33,479 nt of DNA from a virus (Duplodnaviria > Heunggongvirae > Uroviricota > Caudoviricetes): positions 1-33,479 of the IMG/VR virus record IMGVR_UViG_2627854066_000005; one strand, given 5' to 3'. Of this stretch, positions 584 through 33,479 are shown piece by piece (within the stretch, counting starts at the first letter, position 1; every line of letters begins with the position of its first letter). Below the pieces are notes generated by a model, which saw only the letters and a program-made list of their open reading frames with translations, did not search any database and was not told where the DNA came from. The position numbers were made by a program, and so were the translations under genes.

Positions 584-1597
584 CTACCCTACTGTGGACA
601 CTGTGTGGACACTCTGAGAGCCAACACCACCACGTAGAGGATTAAGCGTTATCGCGTCCTGTAGGTACTCAGGGGCGAAGTGCGCATATGTCATTGTCTG
701 CTCAATTCTTGAATGCCCAAGTATTCTCTGAAGCGTGATAATGTTGCCTCCGTTTATCATAAAGTGCGTGGCGAAGCTGTGCCGCAATGCGTGCGTAGCC
801 TGACCCGGTGGTAGGTCGGGTTTCAGCTCCTTCATTAGCCGTCTGAACGCGGGATAGTTAGCATCAGTGAACAGATAGCCACGCTTACCCGTTGTGATCA
901 TTGTTGCCAGTTCCTCGGATATAGGAACGGTTCGCGGCTTGTTGGTTTTTGTCTTAACGAAAGTGACGCGATTTTGAATGATATTTTCCGCTTTCAGTTT
1001 TGCTGCCTCACTCCATCTCGCGCCGGTGCTAAGGCAAAGAATCGCAATTTTTTTATTATCACCGTCCACTTTTGACAGCAGAAGCGCGATCTCCTCTTGC
1101 GTCAGGTAGCCGGTTTCTGGCTTATCCTCTTTGAGTCTTTTAAGACCTCGGAAAGGATGCTCCCCGAAAAATAGCTCCGCATCTATCAACGCGGTAAACA
1201 TCCCGCTAAGACACGTTAAATCACGATTTATACTCGATGGCTTGATGCCTTGAGAACGCCGCACAGTGCTGTATTGGCTTATCAATGACTTAGCAATCTG
1301 AAAGGCACAAGGGTCACTGGTTATCTTTGTGAACAACTCTATCTTGCCCAGGTAATCTCGGCCGTGAGTTTCATGCTTGCCTTTCAGCTCCCACCAGATT
1401 TTTGTTAGCTCTGACAGATGCCGCTTATCTGTCGGTTTCGCCAACCATTCTTTGTTGTGATGGTTGTACTGGGTATGCTTCTCGAAAGCGATAGCTTCGC
1501 TTTTCTTGTCAAATTTCCTGCGGATGCGCTTTCCGTTGCGCCCTGCAGGTCTAATGTCCACTTCATAACGACCATCATCGAGCTTTTTAACAGACAT
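584..1597 (-). CDS. int: Tyrosine recombinase, P2-type integrase
   Basis: 337 aa from the internal Met (MSVKKLDDGRYEVDIRPAG...), same length as P2 Int. C-terminal HxxR...Y catalytic region (ALRHSFATHF...TMTYAHF). Position at prophage end next to C. Confidence 0.9.
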   Translation of the reverse strand: MSVKKLDDGRYEVDIRPAGRNGKRIRRKFDKKSEAIAFEKHTQYNHHNKEWLAKPTDKRHLSELTKIWWELKGKHETHGRDYLGKIELFTKITSDPCAFQIAKSLISQYSTVRRSQGIKPSSINRDLTCLSGMFTALIDAELFFGEHPFRGLKRLKEDKPETGYLTQEEIALLLSKVDGDNKKIAILCLSTGARWSEAAKLKAENIIQNRVTFVKTKTNKPRTVPISEELATMITTGKRGYLFTDANYPAFRRLMKELKPDLPPGQATHALRHSFATHFMINGGNIITLQRILGHSRIEQTMTYAHFAPEYLQDAITLNPLRGGVGSQSVHTVSTVG

Positions 1598-1693
1598 AAA
1601 GCCTCCCGATGATGTTACTGCGTACTTCAATTTCCTGATTTAAATAACAAAAACTCACCGTGCATTTACTGCACAGATAAGCACCGTAAATGG

Positions 1694-5865: not shown

Positions 5866-5941
5866 TTTATGGCGATAAAAAATTCAAATACGCGGCTGCT
5901 GATGAGTGGCCGGGATTCTCAATTCAAGAGGAGTGGAAATA

Positions 5942-6406
5942 ATGAGCAAAATCCATGAGTTAAAAATTGCACCTGAGCATTTTAACGCTGTGATATCTCA
6001 GGAAAAACGTGCTGAATTTCGTCTCAATAACCGCGATTATTCTAGCGGTGATATTCTCGGGTTGCATGAATGGGAACCGGTAAACGGATATACCGGGAAA
6101 CGTGTATCAGTGAGGGTGACATACGTTACTGATTTATCTGAATGGGCGGAAAATTATGTGATGCTGAGTTTTCAGTTAATGATGCCAGATGTCAAGTGCG
6201 GTATGTCCCTAATGAACTGGAAAGAGTTAAGCGAGAAGGGGCTTGTTTTCAGAATTAATCACGAAATTCTACACCCGTTAGGGCTGGCTATTGGATTTGA
6301 AACACTTAACGGCGTTTCGGGTGGGGCTTATGTCGCTTGTGATGGTGTCTGGCAATATTCCGACAAGCTGGTCGCAGATGCTAAAAAAAATGGGTGGTTA
6401 AAATGA
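5942..6406 (+). CDS. Hypothetical protein with ASCH/DUF3850-like N-terminal region (cargo, tin/old position)
   Basis: ATG 5942 with RBS aagaggag. N-terminus ELKIAPEHFNAVISQEKRAEFRLNNRDYSSGDILGLHEWEP resembles DUF3850/ASCH (PUA-like) proteins, from memory only. About 42% GC versus about 55% backbone. Confidence 0.4.
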   Translation: MSKIHELKIAPEHFNAVISQEKRAEFRLNNRDYSSGDILGLHEWEPVNGYTGKRVSVRVTYVTDLSEWAENYVMLSFQLMMPDVKCGMSLMNWKELSEKGLVFRINHEILHPLGLAIGFETLNGVSGGAYVACDGVWQYSDKLVADAKKNGWLK

Positions 6407-7017: not shown

Positions 7018-8349
7018 ATGGTGATTAATGAAGTTAGACGGATAGGTAGTGGCGGTTTTGGTAATGTTGATTTAGTGCAAGATGTCCTTAGCGGAAAGCA
7101 ATTCGCTAGGAAAACATTTTCTATAAATCAAGCTCAACCGCTGCCTCCTGATTTGGCAGAGAATGTAAAAAAAAGATTTATAAGAGAGGCAAACGTACAG
7201 TATAGACTTACGCATAAAAATATTGTACCTGTCCTTTTTAAAGATCTAAATAGTAACCCTCCATCTTTCCTTATGCCAGTAGCAGCATCTAGCCTTGATA
7301 AAGATATTGCGCAAAGTAGAAACTTGAATGGATTATTTTTAAGAGCAATAATGGATATTTTGTCTGGACTCGAAGAATTGCACACGTTGCAAATTTATCA
7401 TCGTGATCTCAAACCACAAAATGTGCTTAGATTTGATTCAAGTGAAGGTCCATATTACGCTATTAGCGACTTTGGCTTGATGTCAGTAAAAGATACTCAA
7501 ATTTCAGCACTAACCCATACAGGTATGAAAATGGGTTCTGATTACTACACCGCACCTGAAATTGTTTCAGATCTTAGAAAAGCTAGTATTGCTTCAGATA
7601 TTTATTCTTTGGGGTGTATACTGCATGACTTTGTAGGCACGGATGAAAGAATTCCTTGTGGTGAAATTAATAATGATTCGAGCGCATATGCGCATATTTT
7701 ACGGGTTTGTACTCGTAGAGATCCTTCAAGAAGATTTCCAAGTGTTGCAGCATTAAGGGATGCAATTCTTAGTATTGATCCTTCTACAGTAATACATCTC
7801 TCTGCTGAGGTTGGAACATATACTACAGCATTAGATAGTGACGCCGGAATTAATGTTGAAACATGGAGGGAAATAATCAATTTCGTAGAGGATAATATTG
7901 GACAAGAAAACTCCAAGGTGATATTTCAGCGTCTAACTTTAAACAGGATTAATGAGATAATCGCTCATGATACCACGCTAGCTTGTCGTCTTGGTGAAGC
8001 ATATGGTCGTTGGGTTGCGGATGGAGTATTTTCATTCGAACAGTGTGATGGGATTTGCACTCGTCTCGAACAATTTTTACAACTTCACGATTTGAACTGT
8101 AAAGCCGAAATTATTATAGCTATGCTTCTTATGGGAACGTCGCATAATCGTTGGTATGTCGAGAGACGCTTCATGAGCGTGGCAGGGCACGACATGACTC
8201 CAGAACTGGCTAAAAGGCTTGCTTTGGAAATGAGCATACTTGAGGGTAGAATGTGTGCAGCGGTGAGTCATCTCCAAAGATCAATTGGTGCCACACCTGA
8301 TATGCTTCATCCTGAACTTTTCGCAATGATACAAAGAGTATGCCATTGA
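7018..8349 (+). CDS. Hanks-type (eukaryotic-like) Ser/Thr protein kinase with about 170-aa C-terminal domain of unknown function
   Basis: Gly-rich loop IGSGGFGNV (7042-7068); Lys in FARKTF; catalytic loop HRDLKPQN (HRD at 7399-7407); DFG (7468-7476); YTAPE. RBS aaggcaagggg upstream; AT-rich promoter-like region 6950-7017. About 35-38% GC. Confidence 0.8.
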   Translation: MVINEVRRIGSGGFGNVDLVQDVLSGKQFARKTFSINQAQPLPPDLAENVKKRFIREANVQYRLTHKNIVPVLFKDLNSNPPSFLMPVAASSLDKDIAQSRNLNGLFLRAIMDILSGLEELHTLQIYHRDLKPQNVLRFDSSEGPYYAISDFGLMSVKDTQISALTHTGMKMGSDYYTAPEIVSDLRKASIASDIYSLGCILHDFVGTDERIPCGEINNDSSAYAHILRVCTRRDPSRRFPSVAALRDAILSIDPSTVIHLSAEVGTYTTALDSDAGINVETWREIINFVEDNIGQENSKVIFQRLTLNRINEIIAHDTTLACRLGEAYGRWVADGVFSFEQCDGICTRLEQFLQLHDLNCKAEIIIAMLLMGTSHNRWYVERRFMSVAGHDMTPELAKRLALEMSILEGRMCAAVSHLQRSIGATPDMLHPELFAMIQRVCH

Positions 8350-9050
8350 TTAATAAATTTGCTTACACATCTCCGGGACCTAGAAGCCACAACCAAGACT
8401 CTATCTTGGTTGAGATTTTACCCAGCGCTGATTTGTTATGTGGCGTTGCGGATGGTGTCGGCGGGAATTTGGGGGGAGAAACAGCCTCTCAATTAGCACT
8501 GGACATTATTGCTGCGGCCATGCGTTCGGATAGTAGCATCTCTCTTCTCGAAGCCATAACCCGAGCTGATGAAGCGATCAAAGATGCTGCTCAGAAAGAT
8601 GGAAAATTGGCTGGAATGGCAAGTACTGTGACTGTAACAAAGCTTATCGGGAATAAATTGATAGGAGCCAATTGTGGAGATTCTCGGACTTATCTATTAA
8701 GAGGAAGTGGCGTCAAACAACTTTCCTATGATCACAGTGAAGTAGCTCGTCTACTACGTGAAGGTAAGCTGACGAAAGAGACTGCAGTTGATTACCCTCG
8801 TAAGAACATTCTTGATAGTGCCCTTGGTGCACACAAGCCTCTACAAGTCCATGAATTTGAATGTAATTTACAGATAGGTGATAGAATAGCTTTGCTATCT
8901 GACGGGGTTTCGTCAGTTGTGAGCAAAAAAGATTTCCGAGATCTTTCAGTGAAATATAATTCGTTAAATGAGTATGGTGCTAGTGTAATAGAGCTTGTTG
9001 AGAGTAGAGAGACTAGGGATAATTATTCATTGATTATTTTTGAAATTTAG
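8340..9050 (+). CDS. PP2C-family Ser/Thr protein phosphatase
   Basis: PP2C motifs GVADGVGG (8451-8465), CGDSRTYLL (GDSR at 8676-8687), LLSDGVS. ATG overlaps the kinase 3' end by 10 nt, suggesting translational coupling. Confidence 0.75.
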   Translation: MPLINKFAYTSPGPRSHNQDSILVEILPSADLLCGVADGVGGNLGGETASQLALDIIAAAMRSDSSISLLEAITRADEAIKDAAQKDGKLAGMASTVTVTKLIGNKLIGANCGDSRTYLLRGSGVKQLSYDHSEVARLLREGKLTKETAVDYPRKNILDSALGAHKPLQVHEFECNLQIGDRIALLSDGVSSVVSKKDFRDLSVKYNSLNEYGASVIELVESRETRDNYSLIIFEI

Positions 9051-30888: not shown

Positions 30889-30969
30889 CGATGTGTTTTA
30901 ATTATGTGTTTGTTTTATAAGTGAAAAATGAGTAAAATTAACACATTGAATACGCCGGAGACCCTCATC

Positions 30970-31191
30970 ATGTTTCATTGTCCGAAATGCCATCATGCCG
31001 CCCACGCCCGCACGAGTCGCTATTTTACTGATACCACAAAAGAGCGGTATCACCAGTGCACAAACATCAACTGCAGTTGCACGTTTGTGACCACTGAAAC
31101 AGTCGAGCGTTTCATCGTATCACCGGGCGAGGTAGTACCCGCGCCGCCGCATCCAACAACGTCAGGTCAGCAGCAAATTCAATGGATGTGA
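30970..31191 (+). CDS. ogr: Late transcription activator Ogr (zinc finger)
   Basis: MFHCPKCHHAAHARTSRYFTDTTKERYHQCTNINCSCTF... has the Cys4 arrangement and near-identity to P2 Ogr; 73 aa from the internal Met. Confidence 0.85.
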   Translation: MFHCPKCHHAAHARTSRYFTDTTKERYHQCTNINCSCTFVTTETVERFIVSPGEVVPAPPHPTTSGQQQIQWM

Positions 31192-31293: not shown

Positions 31294-31503
31294 ATGACTT
31301 TTGATGAATATATGCAAAAAACCAGAGAAATAAATGAGCAACTTCAAGAGATTTCTATGCTAACGGCAAATCAAGCACTAACAAATTGCGCAAACTCATC
31401 CAATCCCGGCTTTGTTGATCTGATGCGTCGTCATGCAGAATTGACAATGCGCTCGTTTAAGCTTACTGAAGAGATGATGAAACAGTTATCTATTGATAAC
31501 TAA
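31294..31503 (+). CDS. Small hypothetical protein (AT-rich cargo between ogr and the intron)
   Basis: 69-aa ORF, predicted helical, no motif recognised; about 33% GC. Confidence 0.3.
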   Translation: MTFDEYMQKTREINEQLQEISMLTANQALTNCANSSNPGFVDLMRRHAELTMRSFKLTEEMMKQLSIDN

Positions 31504-31608
31504 TAATCAAACACTAGGCCAAAAAGGTGTAAGAGCACTAGACACAATGATTGATACTCTTATTCTTTAAAGCAAATCAAAATTTTCTACCATTTTTTTT
31601 ATAAATAA

Positions 31609-31633
31609 AGCCCCGCATTTGCGGGGCTTTTTG
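31609..31633 (+). terminator. Intrinsic terminator; presumed insertion target of the group II intron
   Basis: Perfect 8-bp stem AGCCCCGC-attt-GCGGGGCT followed by TTTTT; intron-like GTGCG begins 5 nt later at 31637. Confidence 0.6.
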
Positions 31634-31636
31634 TAT

Positions 31637-33479
31637 GTGCGCCGGGCATGGCGCGTAGCGCCGTGACTGGCGCTGTTCTTCAACTGTGGTGGCTGAAGAA
31701 CGACTAAGAGGTGAAAGTCCTCCACACACCCGGTGAGGGGAAGTGTTAGCGGAAGGCAAGGGTGTTCATCGCGAGGTGAAATCTGAAGGAAGCCGGATGC
31801 AAAATGCTGGCCTGACGAACAGGAAGCGGTTAAGGCGGCGCAGCGGGGTAAGGTGGCATACATCACCAAAGCCCGATACTCACACGGAACGCTGTAACGT
31901 AGAGCCGACAGGCATAAGCAGGAAAGTCGCGCGAATTACCCCGGGAGAACTGCCGTCCTGCCAGTGTGCTACCGGCGTCGTAAGGTGCCGGGATGGGGCG
32001 GCAGAAGTCAGCCGACGCCGTAGTAGTGCTGCAAAACCGGCAGCATGAAGGGCCGAACATGATTAACCGTGATTAGGACATCCGAACCCGATGATGATTA
32101 ATGAAGCACAAGCGCAGGCAACTGCGGCCAGCGGCAGAGGAGACGGACGGTATCCGTCAGGGCTGCATGATGGCGCTGAAATCAGCACGGCGGCGGGTGG
32201 GCAAACGAAAGCGGAAGTGCCGCTGACGATGGAAGCGGTGATAACGAGAGAAAACCTGATGCTGGCTTATCAGCGCGTGGTGGAAAACAAAGGCGCGGCG
32301 GGGGTGGATAACCTCAGCGTGGCGGAGTTGAAACCGTGGCTGAAGAAGAACTGGCGCAGTGTCAGGCAGGCATTGATTGACGGAAACTACCAGCCGCGGG
32401 CAATACGCCGGATGGATATCCCGAAGCCGGATGGCGGCGTGAGAACCTTAGGCATCCCGACGGTGGTGGACAGGCTTATCCAGCAGGCGATTGCGCAGCA
32501 GTTAAGCGCCATCGTGGACAAAAGCTTCTCAGACTCCAGCTACGGCTTCCGGCCGGGGCGCAACGCATGGCAGGCGGTGCAACAGGCACAGCGTTACATA
32601 CGGGGCGGCAAACGGTGGGTGGTGGATATGGATCTGGAGAAGTTCATTGACCGGGTGGATCACAGACTCCTGATGACGCGTCTGGCCAGAACGATAAAGG
32701 ACAGGCGGGTGCTGAGACTGATACGCCGCTACCTGAAAGCGGAAATAGTCCGGGACGGGCAAAGGGAGAAACGGCAGGAGGGCATGCCGCAGGGCGGCCC
32801 GCTGTCGCCGTTACTGTCGAACATCCTGCTGGATGAACTGGATAAAGAACTGGAGCGTCGTTGACACAGCTTCTGCCGCTACGCAGACGACTGCAACATC
32901 AACGTAAGCAGCCGGAAAGCGGGCGACCATCTGCTGAAGAACATCAGGGCGTTCGTGGAGAACAAAATGAAACTGAAGGTGAATGAGAAGAAGAGCGCGG
33001 TGGCGCGCCCGTGGGAGCGGAAGTTCCTCGGGTACAGTGTGACATGGCACAAACAGGCGAAGCTGAAAATAGCCCTGACGAGCGTGAACAGGCTGAAGGA
33101 GAAAGTCCGCAGTCTGACCACGGGAAACCGGAGCAAATCAGTGAAAGCGACAATCAATGCCCTGACGCCAGTGCTGCGTGGATGGATAAGCTACTTCAGG
33201 CTGACGGAAGTCAGAGGAGTGCAGGAAGAGCTGGACGGCTGGATCAAACGGAAACTGCGGTGCCTGTTGTGGCGGCAGTGGAAGAGGCCGGGAACCCGGA
33301 CGAAGAACCTGCAAAGAGCGGGGCTGAGTAAGGACAGGGCGATGATCTCAGCGTACAACAACCACGGGCCATGGTGGAACTCAGGGTCAAGCCATATGAA
33401 TCAGGCGATAAAGAATGCGTGGTTCAGCAGGCAGGGTCTGATATCACTGCTGGAACAGCAGAGGCAGTTCCAGTGTTAA
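31637..33479 (+). mobile_element. Group II intron, 5' portion (domains I-IV with intron-encoded protein); 3' end beyond the window
   Basis: 5' GTGCG at 31637; about 590 nt of structured GC-rich RNA-like sequence before the RT ORF; the ORF has the YADD motif and the maturase domain-X motif LRGWISYF. Insertion just after a terminator is typical of class C (IIC) introns. Confidence 0.7.
32229..33479 (+). pseudogene. Group II intron reverse transcriptase/maturase, interrupted by in-frame TGA at 32862-32864
   Basis: ORFs 32091-32864 and 32955-33479 are in the same frame. Reading through the TGA gives ...LDKELERR*HSFCRYADDCNI..., continuous through the RT YADD motif (32880-32891). Likely start MEAVITRENLMLAYQRV at 32229. 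Natural stop TAA at 33477-33479. Confidence 0.7.

Follow-up and report, generated by a model that had tools for sequence, protein, structure and literature searches.

Genomic context of the intron

The window, by which we mean the whole stretch of 33,479 nucleotides that was analyzed (IMG/VR virus record IMGVR_UViG_2627854066_000005), corresponds almost exactly to one P2-like prophage. The prophage runs, in order, from an att core through the integrase, gpA, the tail genes with gpD, Ogr, and a 69-aa open reading frame (ORF) to a terminator and the intron described here, while the 3' exon, cyaR with another att core inside it, and yegQ lie past the end of the window. The first 318 nucleotides appear to belong to the host gene yegR, an assignment made by position only; no Pfam family was found there. 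The att core at 477-499, which was located by short-word BLAST, is a 23-nt copy of the 3' end of cyaR, AAAAAAATAAGCCCGTGTAAGGG, and it occurs again at attR beyond the window. In the annotation of K-12, the boundary of a cryptic P2 remnant likewise falls inside the 3' end of cyaR. The features relevant to the intron are the following.

584-1630, minus strand: integrase (Pfam)
30928-31191: Ogr (Pfam)
31607-31632, plus strand: intrinsic-terminator hairpin and T-run, with stem 31610-31616 / 31621-31627 and loop ATTT (fold and terminator scan)
31633-31636, plus strand: IBS1, GTAT, the final 4 nt of the 5' exon (insertion-site comparison and empty-site junction)
31637-33479, plus strand: group II intron with support for class C (IIC), 1843 of its 1919 nt in the window (5' GTGCG, domains I-IV, and the whole reverse transcriptase [RT] ORF)
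31765-31934, plus strand: domain I segment, RF02001 (group-II-D1D4-3), 135.9 bits, E value of 3e-28
31969-32053, plus strand: domains I-IV segment, RF01998 (group-II-D1D4-1), just 5' of the ORF, 70.5 bits, E value of 6e-11
32091-32864, plus strand: 5' part of the RT gene, ending at the TGA and covering the N-terminal ~70% of RVT_1 (positions 1-143 of 205), before YADD
32862-32864, plus strand: nonsense codon TGA, which is GGA (Gly258) in intact copies (alignments to an intact copy and to solved RTs)
32865-33479, plus strand: RT gene downstream of the TGA, frame retained, with YADD, the rest of the RT domain, the X/thumb domain (GIIM, 4.6e-22), and the C-terminal regions

A preliminary description, made from the letters of the window, had placed the intron inside the prophage, downstream of ogr, and the att cores at 477-499 and past the intron agree with it. 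A location in host DNA outside the prophage is ruled out, as the two att cores bracket the intron, which would therefore belong to the excised phage genome.

Several other regions of the prophage deserve mention. Repeats of TGTGGACA are found near 612-640, which we take to resemble the arm-type sites of the P2 Int protein, and like repeats (TGTGGTCA and TGTGGACA) are present in the 3' exon of the intron, starting 3 nt past the insertion point (L001, 4997-5080). On the host side of attL, a 14-nt copy of the start of the 3' exon, CGATGTGGTCAATG, is located at 431-444; it may be the scar of an earlier P2-like prophage. The variable cargo region after gpA contains a 166-aa ORF with DUF3850/ASCH and DUF7415 domains (5906-6406), followed at 7018-9050 by a Ser/Thr protein kinase of 443 aa (Pfam Pkinase, 1e-28) whose ORF shares 11 nt with that of a PP2C-type phosphatase of 236 aa. 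The best PADLOC matches of the kinase are mad6 (4e-33), PD-T4-6 (7e-32), and Stk2 (1e-22). The kinase/phosphatase pair is a candidate anti-phage defence pair. The 69-aa ORF between ogr and the terminator (31294-31503) had no Pfam or PADLOC match, and other P2-like prophages that occupy this chromosomal site have a gene for a trypsin-like peptidase in its place, which makes the position another variable slot for cargo.

Terminator and insertion site

The hairpin at 31610-31627 (GCCCCGC and GCGGGGC around the loop ATTT) is followed directly by TTTTT at 31628-31632. The terminator scan stretched it to a 10-pair stem (31607-31630), and its predicted fold has a free energy of -20.4 kcal/mol (z = -4.7), with none of 200 shuffled sequences being as stable. 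The sequence, the scan, and the fold thus all bear out the terminator hairpin with T-run that had been described before the intron. The spacing has to be corrected, as the GTGCG that opens the intron had been placed 5 nt past the T-run and actually begins at 31637, after a gap of 4 nt (GTAT).

The same terminator hairpin is found in other P2-like prophages, there without the intron. What we used as the empty site is the terminator followed, uninterrupted, by the 3' exon in these prophages, where the junction reads GTAT/CGAT and the surrounding sequence consists of GCTTTTTGTAT joined directly to CGATGTGG. When the 5' flank of the window is joined to the sequence past the terminal CTCGAT of the intron, the product is GCGGGGCTTTTTGTAT followed by CGATGTGGTCAATGTG, and this was found exactly, without interruption, in P2-like prophages that share the chromosomal location (L004 and L005; the empty terminator site of L005 is at 1497-1540). 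The empty site therefore fixes the boundaries of the intron, whose length is 1919 nt. The predicted ligated-exon junction consists of GCTTTTTGTAT joined to CGATGTGGTC. A joined-exon search of E. coli genomes returned no intron-less copy of this same prophage, that is, one with both exons and the orf69 region, and among E. coli genomes, only strains KV7 and A15 have the 5' flank that precedes the terminator.

We could compare five independent insertion sites of this type of intron, namely, this prophage, the ter locus of mouse strains, a plasmid of UPEC132, strain 1105, and CFT073. All five have an inverted repeat, then 1 to 10 nt, and then (N)TAT directly before GTGCG. The exon TAT is invariant over the five sites, position -4 varies (G/G/C/G/T), and the first base of the 3' exon is C at four of them.

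Intron RNA and its boundaries

The preliminary description had proposed a group II intron, with about 590 nt of structured RNA before the ORF. The Rfam search of the window recovered RF02001 and RF01998 in that region, both over the full length of the model and with the scores listed above, for gathering scores of 32 and 35, respectively.

The window ends exactly at the stop codon of the RT, which leaves the final 76 nt (domains V and VI) outside; the 3' end of the intron would fall at position 33555. However, three metagenome or genome contigs (L012 to L014) that are 100% identical to the window over 1.7 to 4.4 kb run on past its end with CATGAACCGCCGTATGCGGAGCCGCATGTACGGTGGTGTGAGAGGACGGCGGGAGTGATCCCGCCTCCTACTCGAT, and the order in them after the RT stop is domains V and VI (76 nt), the 3' exon, and cyaR. 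In KV7, A15, and the E. coli strain M9, RF00029 (domains V/VI, gathering score of 40) matches with 48.5 bits 5 nt past the RT stop, and the contigs identical to the window carry the same domain V/VI sequence. This part folds with -43.8 kcal/mol (z = -5.9). Domain V is a hairpin of 30 to 32 nt with a 2-nt bulge, and domain VI has a GNRA loop and a bulged A located 7 nt from the 3' end of the intron. A lack of domains V and VI downstream had been named as an observation that would count against the group II proposal, and both are present, in the identical contigs as well as in KV7, A15, and M9. Together with the matches inside the window, they confirm the element as a group II intron.

The intron opens with the boundary motif GTGCG at 31637 and closes with CTCGAT; a 1-nt (T) ambiguity of the boundary is settled by the GTGCG…AT consensus. 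The sequence AUAC(A) at 31858-31862 lies in the loop of a domain I hairpin (31853-31868), and by its complementarity to the IBS1 GUAU we consider AUAC the putative EBS1. One base pair of domain I is broken by a G-to-A change at 31896, with which the Rfam score drops from 139.3 to 135.9. The ribozyme part as a whole (domains I to VI) still looks intact. The change at 31896 is common to the window and KV7 and is not found in A15.

Class assignment

As the RT of the window is interrupted, comparisons with solved structures were done with an intact homolog. The best match was the RT of GsI-IIC (E value of 7e-141, 473 bits), followed by that of the Eubacterium rectale IIC intron (1e-107, 364 bits), whereas LtrA (1e-42, 150 bits) and TeI4h (2e-33, 119 bits) were far weaker, by which the other intron classes are ruled out. 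The homolog is collinear with the GsI-IIC RT over residues 47-456, up to the end of the protein. In the Pfam search it contained only RVT_1 and GIIM, with no HNH nuclease domain. Domain V begins with C-CGC-CGUAU, i.e., with a CGC triad, which, instead of AGC, is the class C form, as in the O. iheyensis structure. At the five insertion sites, the only conserved exon bases are the (N)TAT upstream and, at four of the five, the C downstream.

Class C is thus supported by RT similarity to solved structures, by the lack of a nuclease domain, and by the hairpin at five sites, and the class given in the preliminary description can be kept on this sequence evidence. E.c.I6, the relative discussed below, is also listed as class C (PMC3522654, Table S2), and insertion after terminator stem-loops is described for B.h.I1 of Bacillus halodurans (PMC1702495), the model in which terminator targeting has been studied.

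Reverse transcriptase gene

Apart from the TGA at 32862-32864, no stop codon interrupts the RT frame between the ATG at 32091 and the TAA at 33477-33479. The intact homolog has the Pfam domains RVT_1 (8e-45) and GIIM (1e-21), and in the window the same two domains, again with no nuclease domain, are split by the TGA. Counted from the ATG at 32229, where the alignment to the solved class C RTs starts (Met47), the protein has 416 aa, and from the ATG at 32091, the start used in the RefSeq annotation, it has 462 aa. The start codon is uncertain between the two; homology supports the ATG at 32229, as the first 46 residues found no match in the alignment to the solved class C RTs. An RT/maturase of about 416 aa with YADD and LRGWISYF had been predicted, and both motifs are present in the frame with the shorter length. 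The single in-frame TGA that had been noted just upstream of YADD is also there, 7 codons before it.

The critical base is the first of this codon, position 32862, which is T in the window, KV7, and A15 and G in the intact copy of M9, where the codon is GGA. Gly258 aligns with a Gly in both solved class C RTs, within the motif ELE(K/R)RG-x-x-F-x-RYADD. RefSeq marks ltrA in KV7 and A15 as a pseudogene with an "internal stop."

The preliminary description had left two options for the TGA, an inactivating mutation or a sequencing error. According to the latter, the RT would really be intact, and the fact that a single base separates this codon from the intact copies is what one would expect. However, the identical TGA is present in KV7 (from a pig in Denmark) and A15 (from an otter in Mexico), which are independent complete genomes from different hosts and continents, and for at least 24 further contigs (41 index blocks) from independent samples, gene calling gives exactly the truncated product of 257 aa. 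Moreover, the change is a substitution, which, unlike a homopolymer indel, is atypical of assembly artifacts. With the TGA found in KV7, A15, and at least 24 more contigs, we reject the sequencing error, to which we assign practically no probability. Of the two options, only the inactivating mutation, the loss of a conserved Gly to TGA, stands.

The context is the same in all of these contigs (gpU, gpD, orf69, the intron, and yegQ), and the TGA allele was seen only at this locus, in KV7, A15, and the contigs. Conversely, no intact (GGA) RT allele was found at this exact insertion site. A15 shares the TGA with the window and differs from it by three substitutions and a 3-nt deletion, so the mutation predates the split of the prophage lineages. 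Compared with the intact M9 copy, seven of the eight differences in the ORF are nonsynonymous, and for F186I, Y271N, L293M, and L378Q, the GsI-IIC RT keeps the residue of the intact copy at all four positions. By these alignments, the TGA is a real, inherited nonsense mutation in a decaying pseudogene.

A T-to-A change at 32646, which converts the conserved KFFD into KFID, is absent from KV7 and A15, as is F186I, whereas all contigs retrieved with that 257-aa product have it.

As the TGA precedes YADD, the 3' part of the RT would not be translated from the normal start. An autonomous mobile intron has an uninterrupted RT/maturase ORF, and this one fails to show it, with TGA in place of Gly258. 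Two ways in which the split gene could nevertheless be functional have to be weighed. The first is that the two pieces are separate proteins, with the downstream ORF of 170 to 174 aa (32955/32967-33479), which contains GIIM, acting as a stand-alone splicing factor. RefSeq indeed annotates this ORF as a "maturase-specific domain-containing protein," it has its own ATG or GTG start, and the ATG at 32967 was created by a CTG-to-ATG substitution relative to the intact copy. Against this, according to published structures and biochemistry of LtrA and the class C ribonucleoproteins (RNPs), maturase function needs the RT (fingers/palm) together with the thumb to bind the intron RNA. Furthermore, there is no sign of a promoter or a ribosome-binding site for the downstream ORF, whose separate annotation arises automatically once the gene is split. 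We consider this explanation very improbable.

The second is read-through of the TGA, which would give enough full-length RT for a weak activity, so that the intron would carry its own brake on mobility. In E. coli, a UGA before C is a weak, leaky stop context in which trace read-through is possible, and the TGA here lies in exactly that context; the frame past it is open to the normal stop, and the ribozyme looks intact. However, read-through would put another residue, usually Trp, in the place of a conserved Gly that both solved class C RTs share. In all of the 23 records listed outside this prophage, ltrA is a single complete gene, and M9, the sole copy compared base by base, has GGA. The lineage has in addition accumulated further nonsynonymous changes at conserved positions, and the TGA allele is seen at one locus only. 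All this makes a tolerated stop codon, with weak activity of the intron, unlikely, with a slight chance at best, and decay of the gene remains our reading of the TGA.

Relationship to the E.c.I6 family

The intron is 95.0 to 97.5% identical at the nucleotide level to positions 4320108 to 4321914 of CFT073. The intron of CFT073 has been described as E.c.I6, a class C intron in the selC island with a disrupted ORF (Leclercq and Cordaux 2012, PMC3522654, Tables S2 and S3); the name is that of the Zimmerly intron database, for E. coli CFT073, ED1a, S88, and APEC O1 (PMC3522654). Intron-related sequences were found in 1241 of the 5426 complete E. coli genomes, and in 833 genomes, a copy covers most of the query, on chromosomes as well as on plasmids. 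By its sequence, the element is a near-copy of this cataloged, widespread family and is not novel. In the phage collection, no deposited phage genome was found with this intron, the sole match being one of 83% over 194 nt in a Pseudomonas phage, and a literature search on class C introns in E. coli prophages gave nothing specific.

The copy in CFT073 shares with this one the 5' GTGCG and the 3' end, CCTACTCGAT, and it is also located after a terminator hairpin, with TTAT as IBS1 and C as the first base of the 3' exon. Like the intron of the window, E.c.I6 is borne by a mobile element and has a disrupted ORF (PMC3522654). The two copies differ in that the one from CFT073 is only 1807 nt long, having lost some 21 nt close to the 5' end and some 80 nt of the ORF through internal deletions, while the one described here has the full length of 1919 nt, and its ORF is disrupted by a single nonsense codon. 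Their sites are also different, the selC island between grpO and grpP in CFT073 and the P2-like prophage beside cyaR here.

Closer still are the intact E.c.I6-like copies (that of M9 and those of plasmids, e.g., UPEC132), with 99.1 to 99.3% identity over the intron part of the window and the same target pattern of a hairpin and GTAT or CTAT; the M9 copy lies 3' of a terD-family gene. The difference is the intact gene, with GGA (Gly) in M9 at the TGA codon and a single, complete ltrA annotation of 462 aa. The RTs of GsI-IIC from Geobacillus stearothermophilus (PDB 6AR1) and of the E. rectale IIC intron (7UIM) are similar in being collinear over their full length of ~420 aa and in having no endonuclease domain. 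However, they belong to distinct intron species from other phyla and are active enzymes, while the RT of the window is truncated before YADD.

Proposed origin and decay

We propose that a IIC intron of the E.c.I6 family retrohomed into the terminator site of a P2-like phage and that its RT was then killed by the TGA, leaving a nonautonomous relic, a course of events that we consider very probable. Class C introns find their targets by recognition of a terminator stem-loop in single-stranded DNA. Here, an active E.c.I6-type RNP would have targeted the terminator at the end of the ogr/orf69 region and placed the intron 4 nt beyond its T-run, directly 5' of the attP arm. The target would have been recognized by pairing of EBS1 (AUAC) with IBS1 (GUAU) and of EBS3 with the first base of the 3' exon (C), pairings that we infer from complementarity. 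A G-to-T change would then have converted Gly258 from GGA to TGA, 7 codons before YADD. We place the mutation after the insertion because an active RT, or a helper, would have been needed for the latter.

The truncated product has neither the catalytic aspartates nor the maturase/thumb domain and the DNA-binding region. Without YADD and the maturase, it would therefore be expected, judging from the truncation, to provide no help in splicing and no reverse transcription. The site past the terminator is noncoding, so a loss of splicing would cost the phage or the host nothing and would meet no selection against it. This copy would then be carried passively by the prophage and could be mobilized only by an intact E.c.I6-type RT acting in trans. 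As its RNA still looks competent, such mobilization in trans is conceivable. The chromosomes of KV7 and A15 have this one copy of the intron only. A more dynamic scenario, in which leaky read-through at UGA-C or an intact RT from a coresident plasmid keeps the phage-borne intron occasionally mobile, with P2-like phages spreading it between E. coli strains, seems to us to have little chance of being correct.

Implications

The element is an ordinary one, and public genomes already annotate the disrupted ltrA as such. For annotation, the appropriate label is that of a class C intron of the E.c.I6 type whose ltrA is a pseudogene, and its 1.9 kb, lying between ogr and the att arm, are best assigned to the cargo of the P2-like prophage. 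Studies of class C retrohoming would find a clean natural pair of target sites in related P2-like prophages, with the terminator empty in some and occupied in others. Group II introns in Enterobacteria have been described as arriving on mobile elements, settling in harmless sites, and then decaying (PMC3522654), and this copy is a further example of that documented pattern of arrival and decay.
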